A DNA stretch of 64,000 bases from Ignavibacteriales bacterium (GCA_050260105.1 JBLNBR010000013.1:50129-114128), one strand, 5' to 3'; shown: positions 4,334-47,656, counted from the first letter of the stretch. Made by a program: numbers and translations. Notes: generated from the letters alone by a model not told the origin.

Positions 4334-6199
4334 GTGTTTGCGTTGAAGAGGAAGGGTCGTTCCATTTCGCTTGGAGTCAAGCTTGTCGGATTAATGGTTG
4401 CCTTCACTGTGATTCCCACCGTGGCTGTGGCCTTACTCTCCATCCGTTCTGTCAACAGTGAGCTATTGAAGATGATCGAGAAGGACCTCACTTCGCAGAT
4501 AGAGATGGCCGTAGCCCTGGTGGAAACACAGCAGGCGCAGGTTGAGGCGGGAGTGGTTTCCCTCGCGGAAGCCCAGGCCAGGGTCAAGGAAGCCCTTAAG
4601 CCCCTCAAAGTGGGGGAAACCGGGTACTTCTACGCACTGGACGACGACGGTCGCCTCACCTGCCATCCTGCCCAAGAGGGTAAGGATCTATCGGCGGAAG
4701 GGTTCATCCAGCAGATGTTGAAGCAGCGGAACGGGTACATCCGCTACGCCTGGATCAACAAGGAACTCGGCGAAACGAAGGCCCGCGACAAGGTGGTCGC
4801 ATTCAGGGAGTTCAAGAGGTGGGGTTGGCTCCTGGCTGCAGGCAGCTACCTGGACGAATTCCAGGGTCTCGCCAAGGCCGTCCAGAACACGACCCTGGTG
4901 ACCGGCGTCGTGGCGAGCGTGGTGGCCATACTGGTGGGCGTTTTCGCCGTGCAGGCAATCACGAAGCCCATCTCCAGGCTGTCGGCCATCGCGGCCCAGG
5001 TGGCTTCCGGTGATCTTACTGCAGAGGTCCCGCAGGTGAAAACGCGGGACGAGGTGGAGACGCTCAGGAATTCGTTTGCCGAGATGGTTGGGTCGTTGCG
5101 GGGTGTCATTGGCGACATCTCCAGGGTTTCGGAAGAGGTGTCGTCCAGCAGCGAAGAGATGTCCGCGACGGCTGAAGAATCATCGAACGCCATTCAGCAG
5201 GTGGCGAAGGCCGCCCAGGACGCTGCGCGCACCGCTGAGGCGCAGGCAAGAGAGGTTGGCGGCGCTACCGAGGCCATGAAAGGGCTGAAAGAGGCGCTCA
5301 CGCAGATTGCCAAGGGCAGCCAGGATCAGGCGCGTGTGACTCACGAGACATCCGGCGCGGTTAAGGAGATCGTCCAGGCGATCCAGGGTATATCGGGTTC
5401 GGCGGGATCGCTCGCGAGCGCCTCGGAGGAAACGAGGAAGAGCGCGGACAGTGGGCGGGACGCCGTGAGCCAGACGGTCGATGGCATCAAGCAGATCGGG
5501 GAAGTCGCGTCGAAGATCAACGACTCCATCGCCGTGCTCGCGGCCAGGTCGGACAAGATAGGCGAGATCGTCGGGGTAATCGACGAGATAGCCAATCAGA
5601 CGAATCTCCTGGCGCTGAATGCTGCGATCGAGGCTGCGCGGGCCGGCGACCATGGCAAGGGATTCGCGGTCGTGGCTGATGAGGTGCGAAAACTTGCCGA
5701 GAGGTCTGCCAAGTCCACGAAGGAGATATCGGAGCTCATCAGCGAGATACAGCGGGGGACGACCGCGAGCGTCAACGCCATAGATGAAGGGACGAAGGCG
5801 GTCCAGAAAGGCGTCGAATTGGGGGCGTTCGCGACCAGGGCGATCCAGGTGATACTCGACCTTGCGGAATCCACCGACGAAAACGTGAGGTCCATCGTTA
5901 CGGCAATCAACCAGGTATCGGCTTCGAGCGATCAGGTAGAGAAGGCCGTCGAGCAGATCGCATCCACGGCCGAGGAGAGTACGGCTGCCACCGAAGAGGT
6001 GACGGCGTCCGCCAAACAGGTGGAGGAACTCCTGCAATCCGTGGGCGCGGCGGCCGGAACCGCTTCGGCGGGGGCCGAGGAAATCTCGGCGTCCAGCGAG
6101 GAACTGGGGGCCTCTTCGGAGGAGATGGCGAGTTCCGCCCAATCGCTGGCCAAGATGGCTCAGGGGTTGAAGGCGCTGGTCGACCGCTTCAAGGTCTAG
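4334..6199 (+). CDS. Methyl-accepting chemotaxis protein with periplasmic single-Cache (sCache_2-like) sensor and HAMP domain
   Basis: GTG start after a GGGGGGG RBS. TM helix, a sensor region with the [15 protein letters not shown] motif, a second TM, HAMP, and the MCP signalling domain ([34 protein letters not shown]). Confidence 0.85.
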
Positions 6200-6221: not shown

Positions 6222-6250
6222 GGGGAGCGTGCAGGGATGCGCGCTCCCTC
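6222..6250. terminator. GC-rich hairpin between convergent chemoreceptor genes (weak or absent U-tract)
   Basis: GGGAGCG..CGCTCCC stem in the 90-bp gap between convergent ORFs ending at 6199 and 6289. There is no clear T-run, so this is tentative. Confidence 0.3.
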
Positions 6251-6288: not shown

Positions 6289-7161
6289 CTATGATACGCC
6301 CTCGTCGCCCTCATCGCTGCCCAACAGCGGTTTGAGGGTCCTCTCTATCTCGCCGATGTGTCCCACGAGTCTCTCTATCGCCGCCGATTGTGCGGCGACT
6401 GTCGTTGAAGTCTGATTGACGCCGGAGACGATTTCCTTTATCCCCTGTTGGAACTGCTGCAACATGGAGTCGATTCTATCCACCGAGGACTTGCTGTTCT
6501 CTGCTAGTTTGCGTATCTCGGAAGCCACGACGGCGAAACCCGCGCCGGCGGCCCCGGCATGGGCCGCTTCGATGGAAGCGTTGAGCCCGAGGAGGTTGAT
6601 GCGCGCCGTGATCTGAGCGATGAATTCCAGGATGCCGGCGGTGTTCTTGACGTCGTCAGCAATAGACTCAGATCTCCGGACCAGGGACGCCAGCGTCGAG
6701 GACAACTCCCTTGCGGCCTCAAGCCCCTCGGATGCGGCCTCCATCGCGCTTCTTACCGCCCTGGCGACTTCGTCGCAGACGTATTGCCGCTGAGCGTGCG
6801 TCGCCAGCTCAGCCTCCACGAATCTGGCGGCGATGCGCGCCAGCGGCTTCATCATCACCGGATCACCGGTAATCCCGATTGACCCCAGGCGTCTACCATC
6901 GTAATCGATTGGGCAGTTGTAACCCGCCTTGATGAGTGGATTCTTCGCGGCGTCCTCCAGGGTGACCTCGGCTTCATCGATCTCGCGCCTGACTATCCTG
7001 GTCGCGAATGCATGAGGGTTCCCGATCCTTTCTCGAACAGTGGCCCCGATTATGACGCCCGTATGATCGCACACAATCACCGGATACCCCGTCGCGTTGG
7101 TGACCATGTCCACGATGGTGGCGGCCAACGCTGAGTCCAGCGTCACTGCCGTCTCTCCCAT
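6289..7161 (-). CDS. Soluble chemoreceptor: CdaR-type sugar-diacid recognition (Diacid_rec) domain fused to an MCP signalling domain
   Basis: Start refined to the ATG at 7161 (MGETAVTLD...), preceded by a GGGGGGGG RBS. The N-terminal YPVIVCDHTGVIIGATVRERIGNPHAFA and GYNCPIDYDGRRLGSIGITGDP align with the E. coli CdaR Diacid_rec motifs (INVMDARGRIIGSGDRERIG / GINLPLRLEGEIVGVIGLTGEP). The C-terminal LLGLNASIEAAHAGAAGAGFAVVASEIRKLAENS is the MCP signal domain. No TM segments. Confidence 0.7.
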   Translation of the reverse strand: MGETAVTLDSALAATIVDMVTNATGYPVIVCDHTGVIIGATVRERIGNPHAFATRIVRREIDEAEVTLEDAAKNPLIKAGYNCPIDYDGRRLGSIGITGDPVMMKPLARIAARFVEAELATHAQRQYVCDEVARAVRSAMEAASEGLEAARELSSTLASLVRRSESIADDVKNTAGILEFIAQITARINLLGLNASIEAAHAGAAGAGFAVVASEIRKLAENSKSSVDRIDSMLQQFQQGIKEIVSGVNQTSTTVAAQSAAIERLVGHIGEIERTLKPLLGSDEGDEGVS

Positions 7162-7299
7162 ACCCGCGTAACCCCCCCCACTGCAAGCCGTAGTTGTGTG
7201 AGAGCCGGTGCTGAGCGGTCTCGCGTCGACCTTCGACAATATTCGGAATAGTCCTGCACGCCATCGAGTTGGACCGCGGGACAGCGTACCCAACAGAGA

Positions 7300-8643
7300 T
7301 TACAGCGTAGCGTTTATCTCCGCTATGCATTCCTGCATCACATCGAGCGCCTCGGTCAGCTGATCGTTGGTAATAACGAGGGGAGCGAGCATGCGAATCA
7401 CGTTCCCGTTGACGCCTGATTTGAGCGCGAGTACCCCGTTCTTGAACATGGCCTCCTTTATCATTGCGGTTTCCCTGGTCGCCGGTTCCTTCGTCTTCCT
7501 GTCGCGCACGAACTCGATTCCGCACATTGCGCCCAGGCCGCGGACGTCGCCGACGATCTCGAAGTCCTTCTTCCACTGGGTGAACCTCTCCATGATGATC
7601 TTGCCCTGCGCCTCTGCCTTTGCGCACAGTTCCTGCTGCTGGACCACGTCGATGACCTTCAGCGCCGCGACGCAGCCGATCGGGTTACCGACGAATGTGC
7701 CGCCGATTGCGCTGTCGTGCGGCGCGTCCATCACCTCTGCCCGGCCGATCACGCCGCTGATCGGGATGCCTCCCGCCATCGACTTCGCCACGGTGACGAG
7801 GTCGGCCGTTATCCCGTAGTGTTCGTGTGCGAAGAACTTGCCGGTCCTGCCTATGCCGGTCTGCACCTCGTCAATTATCAGCAGGATCCCGTGCTTGTCG
7901 CAGATTTCGCGGACCCGCTGGTAGAATTCTTTCGGCGGGACAACGAACCCGCCCTCACCGAGTACGGGTTCGCCAACGACGGCGGCGGTGTTCGTCGGCT
8001 CCACCATGGTTACGAACGCCCGCTCGAGCCATTTCGCGCAGGCGATGTCGCAGGACGGGTATTCCAGGTTGACCGGGCACCGGTAGCAGTAAGCGAACGG
8101 CACGCGGTAGACCTCGGGCGCGAACGGCCCCATGTTGTGTTTATATGGCATTATCTTGCTGGTGAGGGACATTGCCATGAGGGTCCTGCCGTGAAAGGCG
8201 CCCTCGAACGCGATGAACGCCCTTCTACCTGTGTAGCATTTGGCGATTTTGCAGGCATTCTCCACGGCCTCGGCGCCCGAGTTGAAGAACGTCGCCTTCT
8301 TGGGGTAGTCGCCCGGCAAGAGACTCGACAGGCGCTCCGCGAGCTCGATGAACGACGGGTAGGGCACGACTGTGAAGTCGGTATGGAAGAAACGCTCGAC
8401 CTGTTCCTTCACAGCGTTGACGACTTCGGGCTGGCAGTGGCCCACGTTCAGGCAACCGATGCCGCCGGCCAGGTCGATGAACTCGTTTCCGTCCACGTCC
8501 GTCAGTATGGCGCCCTGAGCCTTCTGGATCATAATGGGGACATTGAGCGAATAGGCGCGGCACACCGCTTTCTCCTTCCTCTCCACCCAAGAACGCGACC
8601 CGGGTCCCGGGACCTCCGTCTTCAAGCTGACCCACTTCCTCAT
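7300..8643 (-). CDS. gabT: Class III (PLP-dependent) aminotransferase, 4-aminobutyrate aminotransferase-like
   Basis: ATG at 8643 (MRKWVSLK) with a GAGGAGGA RBS. FNSGAEAVENACKIA, DEVQTGIGRTGKFFA and TVAKSMAGG (PLP-binding lysine) motifs. Substrate specificity is not certain. Confidence 0.7.
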   Translation of the reverse strand: MRKWVSLKTEVPGPGSRSWVERKEKAVCRAYSLNVPIMIQKAQGAILTDVDGNEFIDLAGGIGCLNVGHCQPEVVNAVKEQVERFFHTDFTVVPYPSFIELAERLSSLLPGDYPKKATFFNSGAEAVENACKIAKCYTGRRAFIAFEGAFHGRTLMAMSLTSKIMPYKHNMGPFAPEVYRVPFAYCYRCPVNLEYPSCDIACAKWLERAFVTMVEPTNTAAVVGEPVLGEGGFVVPPKEFYQRVREICDKHGILLIIDEVQTGIGRTGKFFAHEHYGITADLVTVAKSMAGGIPISGVIGRAEVMDAPHDSAIGGTFVGNPIGCVAALKVIDVVQQQELCAKAEAQGKIIMERFTQWKKDFEIVGDVRGLGAMCGIEFVRDRKTKEPATRETAMIKEAMFKNGVLALKSGVNGNVIRMLAPLVITNDQLTEALDVMQECIAEINATL

Positions 8644-8829
8644 AGGCTGCTCCTCCTCTCTGAATCCGTTGCCTGAGTCACCCATCTCATATATTCACTG
8701 TCTGTGCCAGAGATTCGTTCAGTTGGCTGCGTGTCCTGCAGGGAACTGGGCCGCGGAAGGCGTAGTAACGCAGCGTCCCGGTCCACGATCGGTCACATCG
8801 CCAAGGCTTGGAGAAAAAGGGGGAGTACG

Positions 8830-9684
8830 ATGGAGGTCCAAACCATTCTCGTTATCGGATCCGGCCAGATGGGTTCGGGGATCGCCCAGGTTGCCGCGCA
8901 GTCGGGTTTCAGCGTTCTCCTGAACGATGTCTCCCGGCAGTTCGTGGATAGGGGACTCAAGGGGATCGAGAAGAACCTTTCCCGGAGTGTGGAAAAGGGC
9001 AAGATCGCTCCGGAAGTCAAGGATGCGACGCTCGGGCGGATCAAGCCTGACCTCGACCTGGAATCCGCCGGCGGGGCCGATCTGGTGATCGAGGCCATCG
9101 TCGAGAACCTGGATGCCAAGAAGGAACTATTCGGACGCCTGGACCGGATATGTGGTCCATCCACGGTGCTCGCGAGCAACACCTCTTCGATATCCATCAC
9201 GGAACTGGGAGCGGTGACAAGCAGGCCCGGCAAGCTCATTGGAATGCATTTCTTCAATCCCGTTCCCGTGATGAAGCTGGTGGAGTTGATCAGGGGGATC
9301 GCTACCTCGGATGAGACCTTCGAGACTGCCAGGTCGGTCGCCCTCAAGATGGAGAAGACCCCCGTCGCGGTGCAGGATTCTCCAGGGTTCGCCGGCAACA
9401 GGATGTTGCTGCCCATGATCAACGAGGCGTTCTATTGCCTCATGGAGGGCGTCGCGTCGGCGGAGGATCTCGATACGGTAATGAAGCTGGGCATGAACCA
9501 CCCGATTGGCCCGCTCGCCCTAGCGGACCTCATAGGCCTGGACACGTGTCTCTCTATTATGGAGGTTCTGTACGACGGGTTTGGGGATCCGAAGTACCGC
9601 CCGTGCCCCCTGCTGAGAAAGATGGTCAAGGCGGGCTACCTCGGCAGGAAGACCGGCCGTGGCGTATTCACGTATCAGCAGTGA
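8830..9684 (+). CDS. hbd: 3-hydroxyacyl-CoA (3-hydroxybutyryl-CoA) dehydrogenase
   Basis: ATG at MEVQTILVIGSGQMGSGIAQV (Rossmann motif) after an AAAGGGGGAG RBS. Full-length Hbd-like similarity. Confidence 0.8.
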   Translation: MEVQTILVIGSGQMGSGIAQVAAQSGFSVLLNDVSRQFVDRGLKGIEKNLSRSVEKGKIAPEVKDATLGRIKPDLDLESAGGADLVIEAIVENLDAKKELFGRLDRICGPSTVLASNTSSISITELGAVTSRPGKLIGMHFFNPVPVMKLVELIRGIATSDETFETARSVALKMEKTPVAVQDSPGFAGNRMLLPMINEAFYCLMEGVASAEDLDTVMKLGMNHPIGPLALADLIGLDTCLSIMEVLYDGFGDPKYRPCPLLRKMVKAGYLGRKTGRGVFTYQQ

Positions 9685-9714
9685 CTCCTACGCATTGGTC
9701 CTGGAGGGAGCGCA

Positions 9715-10491
9715 ATGCAGTACATAAGGATTGAGAAGGAAAACGGCGTCGGGGTGCTCACGATAGACCGCCAGCAGGCCTTGAACGCATTGAACGCACA
9801 GGTGCTGGAGGAACTGTCGGCCGTACTCGACTCGGTTGCGACCGATCCGGACATCAAGGTACTGGTGATCACCGGCGCCGGTGAGAAAGCGTTCGTGGCG
9901 GGCGCGGATATCGCGGTGATGCAGCCCATGTCCGTGCTCGAAGGGCGCGAATGGGCGCTCTTAGGCCAGCGCGTTTTCAGTAAGATAGAGAACCTGCCCC
10001 AACCGGTCATCGCGGCCGTTAACGGATACGCCCTGGGTGGCGGGTGCGAACTGGCCCTTGCCTGCGACATCCGCATAGCCTCGGATAGGGCCAAGATGGG
10101 ACAGCCCGAGGTGACCCTCGGGATCACGACCGGGTACGCCGGTTCCCAGAGACTACCGAGGCTGGTTGGGCCTGCCTGGGCGAAGCAACTGATACTGACC
10201 GGGGATGTCATAGACGCGGGGACCGCGGAGAGAATCGGCCTCGTGAACATGGTCGTCCCCGCCGCGGAACTCATGTCGAGGGCAAAGGAGACCGCGTCCC
10301 GGATCGCCTCGCGCGGTCAGATAGCGGTCCGTCTCGCCAAGTCCGCGGTTAACAGGGCGATGGACAGCGACATGGTCACGGGATCGCTGTACGAGGCGGA
10401 GGTTTTCGGCGAATGCTTCGCCACGTCCGATCAAAAGGAGGGCATGAAGGCCTTCCTCGAGAAAAGGAAGCCGTCATTCACCGGGAAATAG
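9715..10491 (+). CDS. crt: Enoyl-CoA hydratase (crotonase family)
   Basis: 258 aa. VLVITGAGEKAFVAGADI and GYALGGGCELALACD crotonase motifs. Confidence 0.8.
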   Translation: MQYIRIEKENGVGVLTIDRQQALNALNAQVLEELSAVLDSVATDPDIKVLVITGAGEKAFVAGADIAVMQPMSVLEGREWALLGQRVFSKIENLPQPVIAAVNGYALGGGCELALACDIRIASDRAKMGQPEVTLGITTGYAGSQRLPRLVGPAWAKQLILTGDVIDAGTAERIGLVNMVVPAAELMSRAKETASRIASRGQIAVRLAKSAVNRAMDSDMVTGSLYEAEVFGECFATSDQKEGMKAFLEKRKPSFTGK

Positions 10492-18879: not shown

Positions 18880-19055
18880 TCCCGCCTGTACGAACATTAG
18901 AGCTGCAGACACTAACTGAAGAGCCTTCACTACTCCGAGCCAGCAGCCCGTATGGGTGGGTCCACCAGCCGCGGGAACTGGCCGAGGCGGAGCCGGGTGG
19001 CTTCGCCGAGGGCGAGCGGGAAACCGCTCTGCCTCCCGTGTTCGGAAAGGAGCCT
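18880..19055 (+). promoter_or_regulatory. Structured 5' leader of the molybdopterin operon: candidate Moco-riboswitch-like element with SD sequestration
   Basis: About 170-nt GC-rich leader after a TTGACA at 18869. Perfect GNRA hairpin GAGCGG-GAAA-CCGCTC, repeated CCGAG elements, and a CCUCCC anti-SD 10 nt upstream of the GGAAAGGAG SD of the first operon gene. The class assignment is not verified. Confidence 0.35.
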
Positions 19056-19322
19056 GTGGAATCATGGGCGCTCTCTGACGCGCAGGGGGCGCCCTCAGTA
19101 TTCGCTGCGACTATCGCTAAGACATGTGAGGTGGGCCGGTTGTCAACGATCGAGGACAGGATCATTGAAGCGGTCAAGTCGGCGGCCAGGGATGGGAGGC
19201 TGCCCTGCAAGGAGGCCTTTGGATTGGCTGCCGCCCTGGGGGTTGCGCCGGCTCTGGTGGGCCGCGCCGCCGATGTTCTCGGCGTGAAGATCAGCGGCTG
19301 CCAGCTCGGTTGTTTCAAGTGA
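19038..19322 (+). CDS. Small Cys-containing hypothetical protein, first gene of the molybdopterin cluster
   Basis: 94-aa ORF whose likely true start is the in-frame GTG at 19056 behind the GGAAAGGAG SD. Ends LPCKEAFGLAAALGVAPALVGRAADVLGVKISGCQLGCFK, 14 nt before moeA. Family not recognised. Confidence 0.5.
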   Translation: MFGKEPVESWALSDAQGAPSVFAATIAKTCEVGRLSTIEDRIIEAVKSAARDGRLPCKEAFGLAAALGVAPALVGRAADVLGVKISGCQLGCFK

Positions 19323-19335: not shown

Positions 19336-20577
19336 TTGCTTCAGATTGTCCCTGTCCGGGAGGCAGTGCAGCATGTTTGCGGAATAATTCCTCGCGGCGC
19401 ATGTTCGCGGCGCAGCGCGCCGGTTCGCTCCGCCTTGGGTCTGGTGCTCAGCAGAGATGTTGTTGCGGCCGGGGATCTGCCACCGTACCCGAGGTCGACT
19501 GTGGATGGGTTTGCGGTCAGAGCGACGGACACGTACGGGGCCAGCGAGAGCATGCCCGCATTCCTCGACCTTTCGGGGGAAGTCGCGATGGGATCGCTGC
19601 CGGAGGCGCCCCTGGCGGCGGGGTGCGCGGTCCGGATATCGACGGGCGGGGCGCTGCCCGCCGGCGCCGACGCGGTGGCGATGCTGGAGTACTGTGAGGA
19701 ACCCGGCGACGGTACTGTCGCGGTGGGTTACGCGGTCGGCCCAGGCGAGAACGTCGTTCGCAGGGGCGAGGATGTTGCGGCGGGGACCACACTGCTCACT
19801 GACGGTCACAGGCTCCGGCCCCAGGACCTGGGCGCCCTCGAGGGTCTGGGCTTCACCGGGGTGGAGGTGTACGGGAAACCGCGTGTGGGAGTGATTTCGA
19901 CCGGGGACGAAGTGGTCGAGGCCTCCGTCCAGCCGGCGCCGGGACAGATCAGGGACGTGAACGGGGCTGCCATCTGCGCGTCTCTCGAACGTGACGGCCT
20001 GGCGCCGGAGTTTCTCGGTGTGGTTCCCGACGACCGCGCCCGGCTGGAGGATTCCATCAGGAGGGCATTGCGGTTTGACGCCGTGGTGGTTTCCGGGGGG
20101 AGTTCCGCGGGGACGAGGGATATGGTCGCGTCGGTGTTCGATTCGCTGGGCAGGCCGGGGGTCGTGGTTCACGGCCTGGCGCTGCGCCCGGGCAAGCCGA
20201 CGATCATGGCGGTACTGGATGGTAAGTTCGCCGCCGGCCTCCCCGGGCACCCATCGTCGGCGCTCGTCGCCTACGAGGCCGCGATCAGGCCGGTACTCCG
20301 GAGGGTCGCAGGGGAGGTCCCCCAGGAAGGCGCGGGGGTCATGGCGGGAATACCAATCAAGGCGCGGTGTTCCAGGAGCATATCGTCCAGGCCGGGCAGG
20401 GAGGAGTTCATTCGCTGTTCGCTGAGATGGGACGGCGACGAGGTCTGGGCTGACCCGGTACTGGGGAAATCCGGACTCATTTCGACCATGGTCAGGGCGC
20501 AGGCATTCATCCATGTTCCCCTTGACAGCGACGGGGCCGGCGCGGGTTCCCCGGTGGACGTCTACCTGTTCGGCTGA
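19336..20577 (+). CDS. moeA: Molybdopterin molybdenum/tungsten transferase MoeA
   Basis: TTG start after a GAGAGGGG RBS. MoeA N-terminal, MPT-binding (VVVSGGSSAGTRD) and C-terminal domains. Confidence 0.85.
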   Translation: MLQIVPVREAVQHVCGIIPRGACSRRSAPVRSALGLVLSRDVVAAGDLPPYPRSTVDGFAVRATDTYGASESMPAFLDLSGEVAMGSLPEAPLAAGCAVRISTGGALPAGADAVAMLEYCEEPGDGTVAVGYAVGPGENVVRRGEDVAAGTTLLTDGHRLRPQDLGALEGLGFTGVEVYGKPRVGVISTGDEVVEASVQPAPGQIRDVNGAAICASLERDGLAPEFLGVVPDDRARLEDSIRRALRFDAVVVSGGSSAGTRDMVASVFDSLGRPGVVVHGLALRPGKPTIMAVLDGKFAAGLPGHPSSALVAYEAAIRPVLRRVAGEVPQEGAGVMAGIPIKARCSRSISSRPGREEFIRCSLRWDGDEVWADPVLGKSGLISTMVRAQAFIHVPLDSDGAGAGSPVDVYLFG

Positions 20578-20591
20578 ATACTGGAGGTCTG

Positions 20592-22604
20592 GTGTTGAGC
20601 GGAAGTCCGGGAGTGAGAGAGGTATACCTGAGCACTATCCCGTGGAATGAGGCGCTCGAGCGATGGCTGGAGACGGTCGAGGCCGGCAGGGCCGGCGTTC
20701 CGGCAGAGGACGTGCCCGCTGTCGAGGCCCTGGGGAGGATCCTGTCCGGCCCCGTCCATGCGCGGCGTTCGTCTCCCCATTTCAACGCGGCGGCCATGGA
20801 CGGGATCGCTACGAGGGCGGCGCTTACGTCGGGCGCCTCGGAGACCTCGCCTGCGCGGCTGAGGTTGGGGCCGGGCGGCCCCGGCGGCGTCGACCCGGTT
20901 GGTGGCGTTGACCTGGTTGGCGGCGTTGACCTGGTTGGTGGCGTCGACGCGGTCGAGGTCGACACGGGCGACCCACTCCCGCGTGGCTGTGACTGCGTGA
21001 TAATGGCCGAGGATCTGAACTACGTCGACGGGGCTTCCGCCGTCGAGGTGATTGAACCGGCCGTACCCTGGCAACACGTCAGGCAGATTGGGGAGGACAT
21101 AGTCGCGACGGAGATGCTGTTCCCATCGGGGCGGGTGCTGAGACCCGAGGACCTCGGGGCCTTGCTTGCCTCGGGGAACACCGTGGTGAGGGTGAGGAAG
21201 AGGCCGGTGGTAGCGATAATCCCCACCGGCACTGAGATCGTCCCCGCTGAGGGGGAGTTGGCCCCCGGCGAAATCCCCGAATTCAACTCGGCCGTGCTCT
21301 CGGGGCTGATCAGGCAGTGGGGCGGGGAAGCCAGTGTGTTTCCCGTATGCCCCGACGACAGGGGCGTGATTGCCGCCGCCGTGCGGAGGGCGTCGGCGTC
21401 AGCGGATGTTGTGGTGTTGATAGCGGGATCATCTGCAGGACGAGAAGACTTCACCGCCCAGGTCCTGTCCGGCGCGGGCAGGGTCGTGGCGCACGGGGTT
21501 GCGATCAAGCCCGGCAAGCCCGTGTTGCTTGGGATCGCTCACGACAAACCCGCGATCGGGTTGCCCGGGTATCCCGTGTCTTGCTACCTCACGGCGAATA
21601 TGTTCCTGAAGCCGCTCTTGCACAGGCTGCAGGGGCTTCCGGTTCCCTCGGCCGCGAGGGTCAAGGCGTTGCTCTCCCGCAGGGCGGTTTCCCAGGCGGG
21701 GGTTGACGAGTACGTACGGGTGAAGCTGGGGAGCGTTGGTGAGCGGCTCGTCGCCACCCCGATTGCGAGGGGCGCGGGACTCATAACCTCTCTGGTCCGC
21801 GCCGACGGGATCATGTTGATACCGCGATTCTCAGAAGGGTTCGAGGAGGGCTCGGAGGTCGAAGTCGACCTGCTCAGATCGATCGAGGAAGTACGTAATT
21901 CCGTCGTCATCATCGGAAGTCACGACGTGGCCCTGGACCTGCTCGGAGGGATGTTGTCCGCCCGCCGTCCCGGCTACTCCGTGTCGTCCGCCCACACCGG
22001 CAGCATGGGGGGCTTAATGGCGCTCAAGAAGGGCGAGGCGCACGCGGCGGGCACCCACCTGCTCGACCCCGAAAATGGCGATTATAACGTCTCCTATGTG
22101 AGGCGGGTCATGCCCGGCAGGGCGGTGAGCCTGGTGACGCTCGCCCACCGCCGGCAGGGGTTCATCGTGCGCACGGGGAACCCCAAGGGCATCCGCGGCT
22201 TCGCTGATCTCGCACGGGCGGACGTATCGTTCGTGAACAGGCAACGGGGGGCCGGGACAAGACTGCTGCTCGACTACCATCTCAAGATGGAGGGGATCGA
22301 CCCGCACCGGGTGCACGGATACGCCAGGGAGGAGTTCACCCACATGGCGGTCGCCGCGGCGGTCGCCGGGGGTACGGCGGACGCGGGGCTGGGGATACTG
22401 GCCGCCGCCAGAGCCCTGGGACTCGACTTCATTCCCGTGGGCGAAGAAAGATACGAACTTGCCATTCCGGCGGAGCACCTGGATTCTCCCCCGGTGCGCA
22501 AGATGCTCGAAGTGGTAAATGACCCCGAGTTTAAGAAGGCCGTGGAGTCTCTTGGAGGTTACGATACCCGGGAAACCGGTCGCGAAAGGGAAGTGTCGTC
22601 GTGA
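20592..22604 (+). CDS. MoeA paralog fused to a C-terminal periplasmic-binding-protein-like (PBP-like) domain
   Basis: GTG start with a TGGAGGT RBS. N-terminal 400 aa is MoeA-like (GSSAGREDF, GVAIKPGKPVLLG). C-terminal about 250 aa (IIGSHDVALDLLGGML...GAGTRLLLDYHL...) resembles the PBP-like domain seen in MoeA-PBP fusion proteins. Contains an in-frame 3 x 15-nt tandem repeat (VGGVDL) at about 20896-20945. Confidence 0.75.
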   Translation: MLSGSPGVREVYLSTIPWNEALERWLETVEAGRAGVPAEDVPAVEALGRILSGPVHARRSSPHFNAAAMDGIATRAALTSGASETSPARLRLGPGGPGGVDPVGGVDLVGGVDLVGGVDAVEVDTGDPLPRGCDCVIMAEDLNYVDGASAVEVIEPAVPWQHVRQIGEDIVATEMLFPSGRVLRPEDLGALLASGNTVVRVRKRPVVAIIPTGTEIVPAEGELAPGEIPEFNSAVLSGLIRQWGGEASVFPVCPDDRGVIAAAVRRASASADVVVLIAGSSAGREDFTAQVLSGAGRVVAHGVAIKPGKPVLLGIAHDKPAIGLPGYPVSCYLTANMFLKPLLHRLQGLPVPSAARVKALLSRRAVSQAGVDEYVRVKLGSVGERLVATPIARGAGLITSLVRADGIMLIPRFSEGFEEGSEVEVDLLRSIEEVRNSVVIIGSHDVALDLLGGMLSARRPGYSVSSAHTGSMGGLMALKKGEAHAAGTHLLDPENGDYNVSYVRRVMPGRAVSLVTLAHRRQGFIVRTGNPKGIRGFADLARADVSFVNRQRGAGTRLLLDYHLKMEGIDPHRVHGYAREEFTHMAVAAAVAGGTADAGLGILAAARALGLDFIPVGEERYELAIPAEHLDSPPVRKMLEVVNDPEFKKAVESLGGYDTRETGREREVSS

Positions 22605-23593
22605 AGGACAGGTTCGGTAGGAGCCTGACATATCTGAGGGTATCGGTTACGGACCGCTGCAACATGCGATGCGTCTACTGCATGCCTGGGGGCGGCGTGC
22701 CCCTGGTTTCCCACGACGATCTACTGTCGTTCGAGGAGATCGAGAGGGTCGTCCGCGCCGGCGTCGGGCTCGGGATCCGGGCTGTCAGGCTCACAGGCGG
22801 AGAGCCGCTCATGCGGAGGGGCATCGTCGATCTGGTGAAGCGGCTCGCGTCGATAGAGGACTTGGAGGACCTGTCCATGACGACGAACGCCACCCGGCTC
22901 AGTATCCTTGCCCCCGCGCTGAAGGCGGCCGGGTTGCGGCGGGTGAACGTCAGCCTGGACAGCCTGGATCCGGGGACGTTCGCCGCCATCACCCGCGGCG
23001 GCGAGATCGGCTCGGTGATGAGGGGCATAGATGCGGCCCTCGCTAGTGGTCTCACCCCGGTCAAGATAAACTGTGTCCCACTGCGGGGTCTTAATGACTG
23101 CGAGATCCCCGCCCTGCTGGAGTTCATACGCAACCGCCCCGTGCACCTGCGGTTCATCGAGCTCATGCCGGTGGGGTGGAACGACGCGTGGTTCCAGCAG
23201 AGGTTCATTCCGGCCGACGAAGTCAGGGCGATGGTCGAAAGGGTTGTCTCCGCCGGGGGCGCACGCACGATTCCGTCCACCGTCGTGGACGGGCGCGGAC
23301 CGGCGACCTACCTCGCGATGGAGGGGTATCTCGGGACTGTCGGGTTCATCTCGGCCATAACCGGTCATTTCTGCGCGAGGTGCACCAGGATGAGGCTGAC
23401 GTCCACGGGGACACTGAGCCCGTGCCTCGCGTCGAGCGTGGAGGTGGACCTCCGGGCGCCCCTGCGCGCGGGCTGCGACGATGCGGAGCTCGAGCGCCTT
23501 TTCGCGGAGGCCGTGAGCCTGAAGCCGCTGGGGCACGAAATGGAGTGCGCGGCGGGCCTCGACGGCCGGCTGATGTCGAAAATAGGCGGCTAG
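22601..23593 (+). CDS. moaA: GTP 3',8-cyclase (radical SAM) MoaA
   Basis: GTGA overlap with the upstream gene. CNMRCVYC radical-SAM cluster motif and full-length MoaA similarity including the C-terminal cluster Cys residues. Confidence 0.9.
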
Positions 23594-23594
23594 G

Positions 23595-24119
23595 ATGCTC
23601 GGGGAAGGGGGTGGCTACTTGTCAGAAGGCGAATGTGACGGGTTCTCTCACCTGGATCCCCACGGGAAGGCTATCATGGTGAACGTGGGCGGAAAGGACG
23701 AGACGGTGCGCAAGGCCGTAGCGAGGGGCGAGGTGTTGATGTCGCCCGAGACATTGCGCCGGTTGAAGGAGGGCGCGGCGCCGAAGGGGGACGTGCTGGC
23801 CGTGGCTCGCGTGGCGGGCATAATGGCGGCCAAGAATACACCACACCTGATCCCGCTCTGCCACCCGATCCAGATTAGCGCAGTCTCCGTGGAGTTCACG
23901 TTTCCGGAGGACCGCCCCGCCGTGGAGATTGAGGTTGCCGTCGAGTGCACAGGCAGGACGGGAGTGGAAATGGAGGCCCTGACCGGGGTCTCGGTCGCCG
24001 CTCTCACCATATACGACATGTGCAAGTCGCTGGATAGGAGCATGATCATTGGTGACATCCGGTTGATGTTCAAGTCCGGCGGCAGGAGCGGGACATTTGT
24101 GAGACAGGATCAACCTTGA
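23595..24119 (+). CDS. moaC: Cyclic pyranopterin monophosphate synthase MoaC
   Basis: MoaC motifs ([21 protein letters not shown]). The true start may be the TTG at 23619 behind a GGGAAGGGGGTGG RBS. Confidence 0.85.
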
Positions 24120-24179
24120 CAGGCGGGTTTATGGGGGTATGGATCGGTCGTGGAGCACGAGGGTAGCGGGATAAGCAGG

Positions 24180-24707
24180 ATGGTGAAGCACAGGATAAGG
24201 TATGGGATATTGACGGCCAGCGACTCGGGGGCCGCCGGAGAACGCCGCGACCTCTCGGGCGAAGCCATCCAGGAAGTGATCCGGGCGTCGGGGGGCGAGG
24301 TGGCGCGTTACACGATCGTCGCCGACGAGGAGGAAGTGATCGCGCGCGAACTCCGCGATATGGCCGATAACCTGGGCATCGACGTGATTCTGACCACGGG
24401 GGGCACCGGTCTCAGCCCGCGGGATCATACCCCGGACGCCACCTATGCTGTGATCGACAGAGAGGTGCCCGGCATTGCGGAAGCCATGCGGCAGGAGGGA
24501 CTGAAGCACATACCCCATGCGATGCTTTCGCGACAGGCGGCGGGCGTACGCGGGGGGAGCCTCATAATCAACATGCCTGGAAGCCCGAGGGCCGTGCGCG
24601 AGTGCCTGGCCGTCGTGATGCCGGCGATCCCTCACGCCGTCGAGGTTCTGCGCGGCGAAGCCCGCGATTGCGCGCGCCTCCGCGACAGTCAGGAGAAGGG
24701 GCCTTAG
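24180..24707 (+). CDS. mog: Molybdopterin adenylyltransferase MoaB/Mog family
   Basis: ATG at MVKHRIRYGILTASD. ILTTGGTGLSPRD motif of the MoaB/Mog fold. Confidence 0.8.
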   Translation: MVKHRIRYGILTASDSGAAGERRDLSGEAIQEVIRASGGEVARYTIVADEEEVIARELRDMADNLGIDVILTTGGTGLSPRDHTPDATYAVIDREVPGIAEAMRQEGLKHIPHAMLSRQAAGVRGGSLIINMPGSPRAVRECLAVVMPAIPHAVEVLRGEARDCARLRDSQEKGP

Positions 24708-29200: not shown

Positions 29201-29280
29201 GCGGGCGAGGACTATCGCCAGTTGCCGGAGAATTGTAGCATACGGGGGCGATAAACGTAGACGGAGTCATCTTCGACATC

Positions 29281-30159
29281 ATGAAATACGCCATCCACGA
29301 CGGGCCGGGGATCCGCACAATCGTGTTCCTCAAGGGATGCCCCCTCCGGTGCTGGTGGTGCCACAACCCCGAGGGGCAGGACCCCCGCCCCGAGCTCATC
29401 ATGTGGGAGAACAGGTGCATATCCTGTGGCGAGTGCGCCCGGGTATGCACCGGGGGCGCGATCGTGACCGGAGATGGCCTGCTGCGTTTCCGCAAGGAGG
29501 ACTGCAGGCTGTGCTTCAAATGCGTCGAGGCCTGCCACGCTGGGTCCAGGGCGGTTGCCGGCAGGGAAGTATCCGTTGAAGAGGTAATGGAAGAGATTCT
29601 TAAGGATGCCCCGTTTTATGAGGAGTCGGGCGGCGGGGTGACGTTTTCCGGCGGGGAACCGCTGGCGCAGCCCCAGTTCCTGGAGGCCTTGCTGGCGGAA
29701 TGCGGGGCCCGCGAGATACACACGGCCATCGAGACGACCGGCTGGGCGATACGGGAAGACCTGCTCCGGATATCCCCGAAGGCGAATCTGATCCTCTTCG
29801 ACCTGAAGATCATTGACGAAGCCGAGCACAGGAAGCATACAGGGTCATCCAACGGGCCGATTCTCGACAACCTTGCCGCGTTGACGGCAGTCCACGATAA
29901 CGTCGTCGTCAGGATCCCGGTCGTCCCGGGAGTAAACGATAGTGACCAGCGCGTTCATGAGTTTGGCAGGTTCCTTACGGGGCTGCCCGGGATCAGAGAA
30001 ATCCATCTCCTGCCGTATCACAAGGCGGGGGTGGAGAAATACCGGAGACTCGGCAGGCAGTACCGGCTGCCGTCGCTGGAGCCGCCGGACAGGGCCACGA
30101 TGGAGAGGATATCCGCCACACTGCGGGACTACGGCAAGACCGTCAAGATTGGGGGTTAG
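29281..30159 (+). CDS. Glycyl-radical enzyme activating enzyme (radical SAM, with extra ferredoxin-like 4Fe-4S motifs)
   Basis: N-terminal GCPLRCWWCHNPE radical-SAM/AE motif, two CxxCxxCxxxC clusters (CISCGECARVC, CRLCFKCVEAC), and a glycine-rich SAM site GVTFSGGEP. Confidence 0.85.
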   Translation: MKYAIHDGPGIRTIVFLKGCPLRCWWCHNPEGQDPRPELIMWENRCISCGECARVCTGGAIVTGDGLLRFRKEDCRLCFKCVEACHAGSRAVAGREVSVEEVMEEILKDAPFYEESGGGVTFSGGEPLAQPQFLEALLAECGAREIHTAIETTGWAIREDLLRISPKANLILFDLKIIDEAEHRKHTGSSNGPILDNLAALTAVHDNVVVRIPVVPGVNDSDQRVHEFGRFLTGLPGIREIHLLPYHKAGVEKYRRLGRQYRLPSLEPPDRATMERISATLRDYGKTVKIGG

Positions 30160-30165
30160 CGGACC

Positions 30166-32526
30166 ATGAACGAACGGGTTGCGATGTTGAGACAGAGGAG
30201 CCTCGAGACGAAACCATTCATATCGACAGAGCGGGCCGAACTCATGACCCAATTCCACAGGGAATTCTGCGGCGCGGTATCCGTCCCCGTCCGCCGGGCC
30301 CTGGCGTTCAAGCACCTGATGGAGAACAAGACCATCTACATCGGCGAGGGGGAGCTGATCGTCGGGGAGAGAGGGCCGGAGCCGAAGGCGACCCCGACTT
30401 ACCCCGAGCTGTGCTGCCATAGCCTGCAGGACCTCGACATCCTCAACTCCAGGGAGAAGATACCGTTCAAGGTCAGCCCGGAAGCGCGGCGCGTATACGA
30501 GGACGTGATCATACCGTTCTGGAGCGGTAAGTCCATGCGGGACATGATATTCAGGGAGATGTCGCAGGAGTGGAAGGACGCGTACGACGCCGGCGTCTTC
30601 ACGGAGTTCATGGAGCAGAGGGCCCCCGGCCACACCGTGCTTGACAACAAGATCTACCACAGGGGGTTTCTCGAATTCAAGAAGGAGATCCAGGAATGCC
30701 TGGATAGCCTCGACTATCTGAACGACCCCGAGGCCTTTTCGAAGAGGGAAGAGCTCAAGGCGATGCTCATCTGCTGTGACGCGATCATGATCTTCGCCGA
30801 GCGTCACGCCGCAAAGGCCAGTGAGCTGGCGGCCCGCGAACCGGATCCCGCGAGGCGGCAGGAGCTGGAGCGCATGGCCGCAGTGTGCAGTTGGGTGCCT
30901 GCTCACGCCCCCAGGGATTTCCACGAAGCGCTCCAGGCGTACTGGTTCGTTCACCTGGGCGTAATCACTGAGCTTAACACGTGGGACGCCTTCAACCCCG
31001 GCAGGCTCGACCAGCATCTGTACCCCTTCTACAAGAAGGGCCTCGAGAATGGCTCGCTCACCGTCGAGAAGGCACGCGAGCTGCTTCAATGCTTCTGGGT
31101 CAAGTTCAACAACCAGCCTGCGCCTCCGAAGGTCGGGGTCACGGCGGCGGAGAGCGGCACCTACACCGACTTCGCCAACATCAACCTCGGGGGATTGAAG
31201 CCCGACGGCTCTGACGGCGTCAATGACCTGACATACCTTCTTCTCGAGGTCATCGACGAGATGAGGCTCGTGCAGCCGAGCACCAACATACAGCTCAGCA
31301 AGAAGAATCCTGATAGATTCCTCAAGGCCGCATGCAGGGTGATCCGGAAGGGCTGGGGCCAGCCATCGATATTCAACGCGGACGAGATCGTCCAGGAACT
31401 CCTGAGACAGGGCAAGTCGGTCGAGGACGCCCGGAACGGGGGAGCGAGCGGCTGCGTCGAGACGGGCGCCTTCGGCAAGGAGAGCTACATCCTCACCGGA
31501 TACTTCAACATCGTGAAGATGATCGAACTGGCTCTGAATGACGGCGTGGACCCGAGGACGGGGAAGCAGTTGGGTCCGAAGACCGGCAACCCCCGCCAAT
31601 TCGAGACGTTCGACGAGGTGTGCGACGCTTTCAGAAGGCAGATGAAATACTTCATCGACGTCAAGATCAAGGGCAGCAATATCATCGAGCGGGCGTTCGC
31701 CGCCTACATGCCGTCGCCGTTCCTTTCGATCATCATCGACGACTGCATCAAGAATGGCAGGGACTACAACGACGGTGGCGCGAGGTACAACACGGACTAC
31801 ATCCAGGGCGTGGGCCTCGGAAGCGCCACGGACTGCCTGTCGGCGATCAAGTATCACGTCTACGACCAGGGCAATCTCAGCATGGATGACCTCCTGAAAG
31901 CCATCGGAGAGGACTTCGAGGGACAGGAGAGGGTGCGCCAGCTCCTCCTCAACAAAACGCCCAGGTACGGCAATGACGACGACTACGCCGACGACATCAT
32001 GAGGTTCATCTTCAACAGCTTCTACGATGAGGTGAACGGCAGGAAAAACACCAAGGGCGGTGTCTACAGGATCAACATGCTCCCGACCACCTGCCATGTC
32101 TACTTTGGGTCCGTGGTGGGCGCGATGCCGGACGGGAGGAAGGCCTGGCAGCCGTTGTCCGAGGGGATATCGCCGGTGCAGGGCTCGGACAGGCGAGGAC
32201 CGACGGCTGTGATCAAGTCCGCCTCCAAGATGGACCATGTACGGACGGGCGGCACACTCCTCAACCAGAAGTTCACACCCCAGCTCCTTGAGGGTGAGGA
32301 GGGCATCGAGAGACTGGCCAACCTGGTACGGACGTATTTCAGGCTGGACGGCCATCACATCCAGTTCAACGTGGTGGGCGTGGAGACGCTGCGCGCGGCG
32401 CAGAAGGAACCCGAGAAGTACAGGGACCTCATCGTGCGCGTCGCGGGTTACAGCGATTACTTCTGCGACCTGGGCAAATCGCTTCAGGACGAGATCATCG
32501 CCCGGACCGAGCACGCCAGCTTCTGA
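30166..32526 (+). CDS. Glycyl radical enzyme of the PFL2 / 1,2-eliminase (glycerol dehydratase, HypD, CutC-like) family; substrate unknown
   Basis: 786 aa. Catalytic Cys loop GGASGCVETGAFG and C-terminal glycyl-radical motif RVAGYSDYF. Sits immediately downstream of the activase. Confidence 0.85.
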   Translation: MNERVAMLRQRSLETKPFISTERAELMTQFHREFCGAVSVPVRRALAFKHLMENKTIYIGEGELIVGERGPEPKATPTYPELCCHSLQDLDILNSREKIPFKVSPEARRVYEDVIIPFWSGKSMRDMIFREMSQEWKDAYDAGVFTEFMEQRAPGHTVLDNKIYHRGFLEFKKEIQECLDSLDYLNDPEAFSKREELKAMLICCDAIMIFAERHAAKASELAAREPDPARRQELERMAAVCSWVPAHAPRDFHEALQAYWFVHLGVITELNTWDAFNPGRLDQHLYPFYKKGLENGSLTVEKARELLQCFWVKFNNQPAPPKVGVTAAESGTYTDFANINLGGLKPDGSDGVNDLTYLLLEVIDEMRLVQPSTNIQLSKKNPDRFLKAACRVIRKGWGQPSIFNADEIVQELLRQGKSVEDARNGGASGCVETGAFGKESYILTGYFNIVKMIELALNDGVDPRTGKQLGPKTGNPRQFETFDEVCDAFRRQMKYFIDVKIKGSNIIERAFAAYMPSPFLSIIIDDCIKNGRDYNDGGARYNTDYIQGVGLGSATDCLSAIKYHVYDQGNLSMDDLLKAIGEDFEGQERVRQLLLNKTPRYGNDDDYADDIMRFIFNSFYDEVNGRKNTKGGVYRINMLPTTCHVYFGSVVGAMPDGRKAWQPLSEGISPVQGSDRRGPTAVIKSASKMDHVRTGGTLLNQKFTPQLLEGEEGIERLANLVRTYFRLDGHHIQFNVVGVETLRAAQKEPEKYRDLIVRVAGYSDYFCDLGKSLQDEIIARTEHASF

Positions 32527-32580
32527 CAGTGATATGATAGTACCGTAGGGCGCTGGAGTGCCGATTGGGGTCGAGGTTGA

Positions 32581-32847
32581 GTGAACACACAGGGGAAGAA
32601 AACCGAGAACCGCAAACAGAAGCTTGTCCGGCGGCTCGGAGTGAAGAGCCCCTCTGGTTGCAGACGTATCTCCGACAGCAAGGCAGTCTACCAGATCAGA
32701 GTCACTTGTTCCAGAACCGCACCCAAGAGGTGCTACCGGATCTACTCAGAGGAAGATATCAAGGGCTTCATTGATGCTGACGAAATGTCGCCAGAACTAG
32801 ATAGGAAAGTGACCCGCCTTCTTAACCATGGGCGCCGGGACTCCTGA
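32581..32847 (+). CDS. Hypothetical basic 88-aa ORF at the edge of the low-GC island
   Basis: GTG-initiated Lys/Arg-rich ORF in lower-GC DNA. No homolog recognised. It could be a gene remnant. Confidence 0.25.
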   Translation: MNTQGKKTENRKQKLVRRLGVKSPSGCRRISDSKAVYQIRVTCSRTAPKRCYRIYSEEDIKGFIDADEMSPELDRKVTRLLNHGRRDS

Positions 32848-33065
32848 AAGATTCAGGGTCTTTCTCGACGCGACAATATGGGTTGCAGCAGCAGGAAGTC
32901 CGGCGGGGGGATCGGCCAAGATCATCCAGCTGGCGACGGCCGGATACTTCCGATGGCTCTAACGATAGCGGGCCGGTGGCACTTGGTTGGAGAAAGGGAT
33001 TGTTACACCCTGGATTCATATACCGGCGGGGTGGTGAAGATAAACGTTAGCAAGGGGGTTGTCAA

Positions 33066-34214
33066 ATGAGCAGAATTGCCGTTAGCGCAGACGTTATGCG
33101 CTGGGCTTTGGAGCGCTCTAATCTGACCATTGACGACCTGCAGAAACGGCTTCCAGGGATTCGCCATTGGGTGGACGGCATGAAGCAGCCGACATTGAGG
33201 CAACTAGAGGAACTGGCGAAGGTAACTTCAACGCCGCTCGGATACTTCTTCCTTGAGCAGCCACCGCTAGAGCGATTGCCCATTCCGCACTTTAGAACCC
33301 ATGCCGACGGGGATTTGGGCAGGCCGAGCCCTGACCTTCTTGAGACCATTCAAATGATGCAGCGCCGGCAGTTCTGGATGCGTGACTTCCTGATTGAGCA
33401 AGGCCAGGAACGGCTTGCGTTCGTGGGATCTGCGCAACTTGAAGAACAGGCTGCACTGACCGCGCGAAGCCTGCGTCGTACGCTGGGTCTTCCCGAAGGG
33501 TGGGCGGCTCTTCAGAAGACGTGGACGGATGCCCTGCATGTTCTTCGTGAAGCCATGGAAGACGCAGGGATCCTGGTAGTCGTCAATGGTATTGTCGGGA
33601 ACAACACCCATCGCAAGCTCGATCCACAAGAATTCCGAGGTTTTGTTCTGGTGGACGAGTACGCCCCGCTATTATTTGTGAATGGTGCCGACTACAAGGC
33701 TGCGCAGATGTTTACGCTAGCCCACGAGCTGGCGCACGTGTTCTTTGGAAGCAGTGCTGCATTTGATCTGCGTGAAATGCAACCAGCTCGTGACCCAATG
33801 GAGCAGGCATGTAACCGGGTAGCTGCTGAGTTTCTAGTTCCCGAGACTGAGTTGTGCGAACGTTGGCCCTTTGTCCGAGACCGTTCAGAACCCTTTCAGG
33901 AACTTGCCCGCGCATTCAAAGTCAGCGTTCTCGTAGCCGCACGAAGGGCATTGGACCTTGGATTGATCCAGAAAGATGCCTTCTTCGAATTCTACCATGC
34001 ATATGAGGCCGGCGAGCGACGCGCGGCTGCTCAACGACCAGAGGGGGGGGACTTCTTTGCCAACCAGAACCTACGTGTGGGAAAGCGATTCGCCTCCGCT
34101 GTGATCCAGGCTGCTAAGGAAGGGAGTCTCCTGTACTCTGAAGCATATCAGCTAACCGGACTCTATGGGAAGACTTTCGACACCTACGCATTCTCTCTTG
34201 GATTGGGGGACTAG
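33066..34214 (+). CDS. XRE-type HTH domain fused to an ImmA/IrrE-family (COG2856) zinc metallopeptidase
   Basis: AAGGGGG RBS. N-terminal HTH (SNLTIDDLQKRLPGIRHWVDGMKQPTLRQLEELAKVT) and HEXXH motif TLAHELAHVFF within a DUF955-like peptidase region. Located in a lower-GC island. Confidence 0.8.
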   Translation: MSRIAVSADVMRWALERSNLTIDDLQKRLPGIRHWVDGMKQPTLRQLEELAKVTSTPLGYFFLEQPPLERLPIPHFRTHADGDLGRPSPDLLETIQMMQRRQFWMRDFLIEQGQERLAFVGSAQLEEQAALTARSLRRTLGLPEGWAALQKTWTDALHVLREAMEDAGILVVVNGIVGNNTHRKLDPQEFRGFVLVDEYAPLLFVNGADYKAAQMFTLAHELAHVFFGSSAAFDLREMQPARDPMEQACNRVAAEFLVPETELCERWPFVRDRSEPFQELARAFKVSVLVAARRALDLGLIQKDAFFEFYHAYEAGERRAAAQRPEGGDFFANQNLRVGKRFASAVIQAAKEGSLLYSEAYQLTGLYGKTFDTYAFSLGLGD

Positions 34215-34216
34215 AA

Positions 34217-43539: not shown

Positions 43540-43566
43540 GGGCGGATGTCGCCCTGGGGTGACGCA

Positions 43567-45773: not shown

Positions 45774-45791
45774 CGGGGGAGGCGGGCCGGC

Positions 45792-47078: not shown

Positions 47079-47087
47079 TGGGATCCG

Positions 47088-47597: not shown

Positions 47598-47656
47598 CCT
47601 TCCCCGCTCGAACGCACACTGTGAACGCACGGCAGGCTGGTTGGCAAGGAGGGCCT

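Follow-up and report, generated by a model that had tools for sequence, protein, structure and literature searches.

A soluble chemoreceptor-like protein that joins a Diacid_rec sensor to a minimal MCP signalling hairpin

A gene at positions 6289 to 7161 (minus strand) of a 64,000-nt stretch of DNA from Ignavibacteriales bacterium (GCA_050260105.1 JBLNBR010000013.1:50129-114128), the whole of which is here called the window, raises the question of what a short protein might sense and control when a Diacid_rec domain is joined to the signalling domain of methyl-accepting chemotaxis proteins (MCPs) with no membrane anchor. An initial annotation made from the DNA alone had described it as an intracellular chemoreceptor for sugar diacids or glycerate, with a sensor shared with the transcription factor CdaR. 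In the reading that is considered somewhat probable here, the protein is a soluble, probably dimeric, cytoplasmic chemoreceptor in which metabolite sensing is passed through a rigid helix and a minimal hairpin to CheW/CheA, probably without canonical methylation in the clade to which the window protein belongs. The parts of the gene were placed as follows.

6289 to 7161, minus strand: coding sequence of the soluble Diacid_rec-MCP protein, 290 aa, complete (ATG 7161-7159; stop 6291-6289)
6787 to 7140, minus strand: Diacid_rec sensor, residues 8-125 (Pfam PF05651), with an alpha/beta core at residues 10-98
6769 to 6861, minus strand: connecting helix, residues 101-131, unbroken from the sensor into the N-terminal hairpin arm in an AlphaFold2 (AF2) model
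6340 to 6738, minus strand: MCP signalling domain, residues 142-274 (Pfam PF00015), a short antiparallel hairpin of ~24 heptads

Both domains were found by Pfam in the order that had been proposed, with PF05651 matching residues 8-125 at E 1.2e-25 (90.2 bits vs a cut-off of 23.6) and PF00015 matching residues 142-274 at E 1.2e-24 (87.5 bits vs a cut-off of 34.6). Fold matches to Tsr and to a model of Bacillus subtilis YfmS with CheW, a conserved core at the hairpin tip and a canonical MCP gene next door were counted as evidence for chemoreceptor identity. The absence of a membrane anchor and of a HAMP domain was also borne out. No transmembrane segment was found anywhere in the 334-aa open reading frame (ORF) by the Kyte-Doolittle scale with a 19-residue window, the highest mean being 1.31 and falling within the coiled coil, and Pfam gave no HAMP match at E ≤ 1 in the receptor; the same scan found the HAMP domain of the neighbouring receptor at 8e-10.

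The enclosing ORF (6289..7293, minus strand) gives the 290-aa product when translation starts at the ATG at 7161. This start, which is also the one of the initial annotation, was chosen independently by the gene callers in two public assemblies (Logan and NCBI), and relatives of the protein are 281-300 aa long. Upstream of it, the frame runs only as far as the transaminase stop codon at 7300 and, therefore, no membrane segment can be hidden ahead of the N-terminus. The region ahead of the gene can be described as follows.

7162 to 7299, minus strand: spacer of 138 nt from the transaminase stop to the receptor start, with a G-run at 7172-7179 and GCGGG at 7163-7167

The G-run and GCGGG ahead of the ATG could serve as a ribosome-binding site. 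Promoter and terminator scans at the gene found neither a sigma-70-like promoter nor a terminator, and a search for sigma-28-like motifs and against Rfam at the receptor gene found nothing. When the gene was compared with that of a relative of 81% identity, the ratio of nonsynonymous to synonymous substitutions (dN/dS) was 0.135 overall and 0.11 per half, with dS ~1; purifying selection acts on both halves of the receptor. A gene of this size could also be what is left of a longer one, for a receptor or a regulator, after truncation or decay; the shortness of the protein and an MCPsignal match that spans only profile positions 3-142 of 172 might be cited for this. However, equal length recurs in ~70 divergent clusters, the AF2 model is confident from end to end (mean pLDDT, the predicted local distance difference test, 88.5), and the reading frame is unbroken and preceded by a plausible ribosome-binding site. 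In ~70 clusters, defined at 50% identity, the length stays at 281-300 aa, which argues that the protein is not a truncation, and the truncation or pseudogene reading, which is extremely unlikely, was rejected on the constant family length and the dN/dS value.

That the N-terminal domain is akin to the sensor of CdaR, as two sequence blocks named in the initial annotation had suggested, was upheld by BLASTP against E. coli K-12 CdaR (34% identity across 98 residues, E 1e-9), in which the RERIG..H and G.IG.TG.P blocks both align. The NCBIfam equivalog model for CdaR matched at E 6.9e-8, with 31.8 bits vs a cut-off of 612. All family members have R45, G47 and G99, and nearly all have H50, these residues falling in R-x-G-x-x-H and G-I-T-G-D-P motifs. 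It is at most plausible that the sensor module was taken directly from a transcription factor. Diacid_rec belongs to the Cache clan and is principally intracellular (Upadhyay et al. 2016, PMC4822843).

An AF2 model of the sensor alone (pLDDT 94.4; predicted template modelling score, pTM, 0.87) models as a GAF/PAS-like fold. Its fold matches in the PDB, at E ~1e-4 and TM 0.5-0.7, are to ligand-binding GAF/PAS/Cache folds and include the CodY GAF domain, SpoVT, the PtsP GAF domain, DhaR-N, IclR effector domains and DctB/DcuS; no solved Diacid_rec structure was found in the PDB, either by sequence or by fold. The R-x-G-x-x-H loop would lie between strand 2 and helix 2, the usual ligand site of such folds. 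Among the PDB matches listed, the top TM-score belongs to the DhaR(N)-DhaK complex (4lrx, TMq 0.70), which raises the alternative that the sensor reads a protein partner, for example a flux-reporting enzyme, in the way that the DhaR N-domain does with DhaK/DhaL, and binds no metabolite. The presence of a gene for a LarA-like enzyme directly downstream of the receptor gene in Desulfosporosinus would fit such an arrangement. The fold matches are, however, mostly to small-molecule binders (CodY, IclR, DctB/DcuS), an invariant Arg and Gly and a near-invariant His in a single loop suit a small anion site better, and no partner gene recurs throughout the family; a protein partner in place of a metabolite is thus considered very unlikely.

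Downstream of the sensor, the full-length AF2 model, built from the 53-sequence alignment, shows the alpha/beta domain at residues 10-98 followed by helix at residues 101-276 that forms the hairpin, with its tip near A204. The connecting helix has no partner on the C-terminal arm. The arms are ~12 heptads each, the N-terminal arm being ~3 heptads longer than the C-terminal one and serving as the connector, and 86 residues separate the tip from the C-terminus (70-91 residues after F209 in the relatives). The hairpin has the length of 24H, the shortest recognised class in the list of MCP heptad classes (PMC6943060), an assignment drawn from length only. Matches to the signalling domain among PDB sequences include 2ch7 and 1qu7, and Foldseek superposed the Tsr structure 1qu7 on the receptor model with a root-mean-square deviation of 2.0 Å over 168 columns. 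The spacing between G99 and N194 is 98 residues in 43/53 relatives and 95 residues in 8/53, including the window protein; such near-fixed spacing speaks for a rigid helix as the coupling element, with no HAMP-like converter in between. The shorter spacing of 95 residues, vs the usual 98, is found in the window clade and a few other members, and a 3-residue deletion in the connecting helix would be expected to shift the helix register.

Two segments of the hairpin bear on whether the family is made up of true chemoreceptors.

6499 to 6591, minus strand: hairpin tip, residues 191-221, LGLNASIEAAHAGAAGAGFAVVASEIRKLAE, from column counts in the family alignment
6706 to 6729, minus strand: candidate methylation columns, residues 145-152, with E145 and E152 in the pairs S-E and R-E

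At the tip, N194, G206, F209 and L219 are invariant, while E198, E215 and R217 are found in 42-48 of the 53 sequences. The tip core of N, E, G, F and E-x-R-x-L is complete in the window protein, and the tip region is identical in this protein and the relative of 81% identity. A strict methylation consensus, [ASTG][ASTG]xx[EQ][EQ]xx[ASTG][ASTG], was found in 24/53 relatives, 21 of which carry it at the E145 or the E152 column. These two columns are exactly one heptad apart and lie 52-59 residues from the tip. The presence of methylation-type sites in register in the relatives suggests that the family has a part in Che-type adaptation and thereby supports the view that its members are true chemoreceptors; this is the strongest indirect evidence to that effect. 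The window clade (P0001-P0004) keeps only the second Glu of each pair and is without the consensus. Possible coupling to CheW/CheA is hinted at only indirectly, by the fold match of the receptor model to the YfmS-CheW model.

Further analysis of the distribution of this architecture was based on a full-length profile search over 1.84 billion representatives at 50% identity. Among the best 150 matches, ~70 were full-length, single-match proteins of 256-315 aa, almost all of them 280-300 aa, by comparison with 226,558 MCP-type representatives at E ≤ 1e-10 in the same search; when the profile was that of the N-domain by itself, all matches were short proteins or fragments, and these did not point to the closest transcription factors. 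The members are mostly found in anaerobic Bacillota. GTDB species genomes with full-length members include several Desulfosporosinus species, Clostridium tetani ATCC 19406, C. rectalis and C. estertheticum, as well as Petroclostridium, Pelosinus/Sporomusaceae, Peptococcaceae, Dichloromethanomonas and one Holophagaceae metagenome-assembled genome (MAG). Of 1274 Diacid_rec sequences in a tally that dates from 2012, MCPs account for 30 and transcription factors for 1192 (Upadhyay et al. 2016, Table 1, PMC4822843). The description of the architecture as uncommon and uncharacterised therefore holds, with ~70 clusters at 50% identity vs ~226,000 MCP-type representatives and no experimental paper found, but it cannot be called novel, given the 30 sequences counted in that tally and the exact protein at NCBI (P0001, held as "MAG: sugar diacid recognition domain-containing protein"). 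The Diacid_rec-MCP architecture is real, rare and already catalogued in databases, and because of this its discovery in the window is incremental.

Other arrangements were also seen among these matches. Two tandem doublets, P0230 (541 aa) and P0222 (575 aa), have two Diacid_rec and two MCPsignal domains each, and several of the best 150, at 409-440 aa, have an N-terminal match to the sensor part of the profile. In P0290 and P0316 (420-440 aa) and in P0355 (580 aa), Diacid_rec is joined to a longer MCP module. As to the source of the window, NCBI labels the contig proteins (GCA_050260855.1) "Ignavibacteriales bacterium"; the receptor family is almost wholly from Bacillota, a homologue of 89% identity is labelled "Bacillota bacterium" and the window has ~60% GC. 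It may be that the contig was misbinned or given the wrong taxonomic label.

The ligand was approached through the genes around the receptor, the nearest of which are given below.

4343 to 6199, plus strand: convergent sCache_2/dCache_2-HAMP-MCP chemoreceptor, 618 aa, transmembrane (Pfam)
6223 to 6248, no strand assigned: GC-rich inverted repeat GGGAGCG...CGCTCCC in the 89-nt spacer between the convergent receptor genes
7300 to 8625, minus strand: 4-aminobutyrate-type class III transaminase, upstream of the receptor gene (TIGR00700, 538.8 bits vs a cut-off of 506.65; Pfam)

The convergent gene was recognised as an sCache-MCP gene from the start and indeed encodes sCache_2/dCache_2, HAMP and MCPsignal domains; the pairing of the two receptor genes is retained in the relative of 81% identity (locus L007). 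The inverted repeat between them has a minimum free energy of -34.1 kcal/mol (z -1.6, not significant) and no U-tract and was not called by the terminator scan; it is at best a weak candidate for a shared terminator. On the other side, divergent genes near the receptor encode a 3-hydroxybutyryl-CoA dehydrogenase (hbd) and a crotonase (crt). A gamma-aminobutyrate (GABA)-type transaminase, the dehydrogenase and a short-chain enoyl-CoA hydratase are thus clustered at 7300-10491 beside the two receptor genes, which suggests aminobutyrate/butyrate-type fermentation chemistry. In locus L007 the hbd-crt genes and the convergent MCP gene are retained and the transaminase gene is missing at this position, and the transaminase was, therefore, given little weight as a clue to the ligand.

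Across 31 loci of the family, the only recurrent functional neighbour was a LarA-type gene (Lar_N and LarA_C domains). It lies directly downstream of the receptor gene in seven Desulfosporosinus-type loci (L014, L015, L025, L026, L027, L030 and L062), and in Alkaliphilus crotonatoxidans (L003/L004) it is found 3 kb upstream, together with genes for a lactate permease and a GntR regulator. The product of the LarA-type gene is a nickel-pincer 2-hydroxyacid racemase/epimerase. The presence of this link in two independent lineages points, weakly, to 2-hydroxy acids as the ligand of the family. The known inducers of CdaR are said to be hydroxy-carboxylates. From the conserved Arg and His, the CdaR inducers and the LarA link, we infer that the ligand is a small carboxylate or hydroxy-acid.

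By comparison, the specific proposal that the receptor senses sugar diacids (glucarate, galactarate) or glycerate, as is assumed for CdaR, can draw on the Pfam family name, on the 34% identity to the CdaR sensor and on the RxGxxH and GxTGxP motifs in common with it. These motifs are, however, family-wide and, therefore, uninformative on specificity, and 34% identity is too low for the transfer of a ligand. The scanned genes of the window and the called flanks of relatives showed no genes for glucarate, galactarate or glycerate; the recurrent neighbours in the relatives are LarA-type racemases and a lactate permease, the genes here being those for the GABA-type transaminase, hbd and crotonase; in the literature searched, direct ligand binding was not found even for CdaR. 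The sole footing of the proposal is the family name in Pfam, "Putative sugar diacid recognition", and this comparison gave it no direct support; sensing of sugar diacids or glycerate in particular is regarded as quite unlikely.

Signalling by a cytoplasmic chemoreceptor of this kind could proceed in a few steps. Some small metabolite from inside the cell, with a carboxylate or hydroxy-acid as the most likely kind, would bind a pocket lined by the R-x-G-x-x-H loop, and binding would shift the packing or the rotation of the rigid connecting helix. This change would pass down the hairpin to the tip and alter the activity of the CheW/CheA complex and, with it, swimming behaviour. The receptor would then report the metabolic state of the cell itself, as in metabolism-dependent taxis, and not an external gradient directly. 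Since the window protein has no CheR/CheB consensus, adaptation would be independent of methylation, supplied by other receptors beside it in a mixed array, or lacking altogether; a methylation-independent form could be of the CheV or CheC/CheD type, as in Bacillota.

Several observations weigh against this reading. The strict methylation consensus was not found anywhere in the window protein, which also carries H201, A204 and A207 at tip positions that are usually charged. The family has R in 30/53, E in 25/53 and R in 28/53 at these columns, which correspond to R388, E391 and R394 of Tsr in an alignment made in this analysis. The substitution R388H reportedly locks Tsr in a kinase-off state. 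Neither che nor flagellar genes were seen in the scanned parts of the 64-kb window or near the relatives. The gene context of the family is not conserved, the LarA link being limited to two lineages and not seen in the window. The placing of R45 and H50 in a pocket is a prediction from the fold type. In the literature searched, neither an experimental paper on any Diacid_rec-MCP member nor ligand-binding data for any Diacid_rec domain were found. The signalling domain can be retained as an MCPsignal domain but not as the canonical methyl-accepting domain first described, given its ~24 heptads, the missing consensus and the three atypical tip residues.

The same features would fit an MCP-like protein that does not control CheA, acting either as a regulator or sequestering protein or as a modulator or decoy on CheW sites in arrays. 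In E. coli, Tls sequesters FlhDC. The H/A/A tip, the missing consensus and the very short hairpin are what such a protein might show, as is the lack of che genes nearby in the scanned parts of the window, and non-chemotactic MCP-like proteins have precedent (PMC12623472). Against this, the remainder of the tip that faces CheW/CheA is conserved and under purifying selection, methylation-type sites are kept in register in nearly half of the relatives, and YfmS, the structurally closest named protein, is modelled with CheW from crosslinking data according to the title of the entry. Moreover, His is found at the position of R388 in 17/53 members and is therefore a variant tolerated in this scaffold. 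Taking these points into consideration, a role outside CheA control is considered unlikely, and the cytoplasmic chemoreceptor remains the favoured reading.

Cytoplasmic chemoreceptors are far less understood than membrane-bound ones, and most are without a known ligand. A soluble receptor of ~290 aa, whose sensor is modelled with confidence and whose helical coupling is rigid, should express easily for ligand screening and structural work. If found, its ligand would be the first direct ligand for any Diacid_rec domain and would aid the annotation of CdaR-type regulators; the wiring of metabolism-dependent taxis in anaerobic Bacillota, C. tetani among them, would come to light as well.

Other features of the window were noted beside the receptor locus. 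Housekeeping genes (cca, guaB, guaA, purB/Q/L, pcrA, ligA and gatA) are found in its scanned parts. Two stretches, 29212-34965 and 41758-48465, interrupt the purine-biosynthesis genes and have low GC at third codon positions (0.43-0.69 vs ~0.8 elsewhere). They hold large ORFs (889, 572, 555 and 355 aa) without a Pfam or PADLOC match, and one of them also encodes an IrrE/M78-peptidase protein (33066-34214) that resembles the capP/RmrA defence components; a PADLOC scan of these stretches gave one weak family match only. Both stretches have the look of acquired islands. On the plus strand, a riboswitch for Moco (molybdenum/tungsten cofactor; RF01055, 46.6 bits) at 18923-19065 lies ahead of a run of ORFs at 19336-24707; synteny with locus L007 suggests that these are cofactor genes of the moeA/moaA/moaC type. 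On the minus strand at 48928-52220, a gene for an XPB/Rad25-type helicase (ERCC3_RAD25_C, ResIII) stands beside a partner with Helicase_C_3 only and adjoins pcrA and ligA. Group II intron 5' domains were found at 62852-63138 on the plus strand (Rfam RF02001, 148 bits; RF01998, 52.7 bits), just downstream of a gene for aldehyde:ferredoxin oxidoreductase (60684-62723), with the remainder of the intron towards or past the end of the window.

Among known systems, the closest to the window protein are the Diacid_rec-MCPs already in databases, such as those of C. tetani, Desulfosporosinus, A. crotonatoxidans and Desulfitispora alkaliphila, which have the identical two-domain layout at ~283-296 aa and the same sensor motifs, with a sensor-to-tip spacing that is equal or 3 residues longer. 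They are named by NCBI as "sugar diacid recognition domain-containing protein" or "methyl-accepting chemotaxis protein", and the window protein is itself one of them. The window clade differs from the other members in a linker 3 residues shorter, in the lack of a methylation consensus and in the H/A/A tip. With CdaR (SdaR) of E. coli, an activator of glucarate/galactarate/glycerate genes, the window protein shares a homologous N-terminal Diacid_rec sensor; CdaR, however, has GGDEF_2 and PucR-type helix-turn-helix domains and acts on DNA, whereas the window protein lacks both and has the MCP hairpin as its output.

The top whole-structure match in the PDB was entry 9a72 (Foldseek E 2.3e-11, TMq 0.56), an integrative model that combines B. 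subtilis YfmS and CheW and was built from crosslinking data according to the entry title. YfmS is a soluble orphan receptor of 286 aa that has been treated as a real chemoreceptor (PMC7542364, PMC5137498). Like the window protein, it has an N-terminal alpha/beta sensor and a short hairpin, no transmembrane segment and no HAMP domain, at equal size. By contrast, the YfmS-like proteins of other Bacillaceae, B. subtilis YfmS itself not being among those compared, have no Diacid_rec match in Pfam, and the RxGxxH motif is missing from the YfmS-like N-domain; comparison of this domain with Diacid_rec by hhalign gave only 53% probability and E 1.3e-4 over 62 columns.

Outside the family, the closest signalling domains, at 35-45% identity, are those of soluble Bacillota MCPs with PrpR_N, PocR or protoglobin sensors. 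These proteins are 280-360 aa long, have no transmembrane segment and have the sensor fused straight to a short hairpin, but their sensor folds and ligands are unlike those of the window protein. Since the nearest outside signalling domains are found in other soluble short MCPs, the short hairpin looks like a reusable output module. A broader proposal, tentative and on balance doubtful, is that in anaerobic Bacillota one minimal hairpin of ~24 heptads serves as a plug-in output for the sensors of transcription activators (Diacid_rec, PrpR_N, PocR), yielding cytoplasmic receptors for "metabolite-taxis" that would sense organic acids within the cell; the window clade, having lost the methylation consensus and the charged tip, would then be a variant that is non-adapting, adapted through CheV/CheD or independent of CheA. 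The 24H receptors, represented by Pseudomonas aeruginosa McpA/CttP and the Vibrio cholerae PAS-24H proteins VC1406 and VCA0864, have the shortest class of hairpin, and some of them are soluble with PAS-type sensors, their assignment to a pathway often being unclear (PMC7534058, PMC6943060). They differ from the window protein in taxa and sensors, and the likeness between them is one of hairpin length only.

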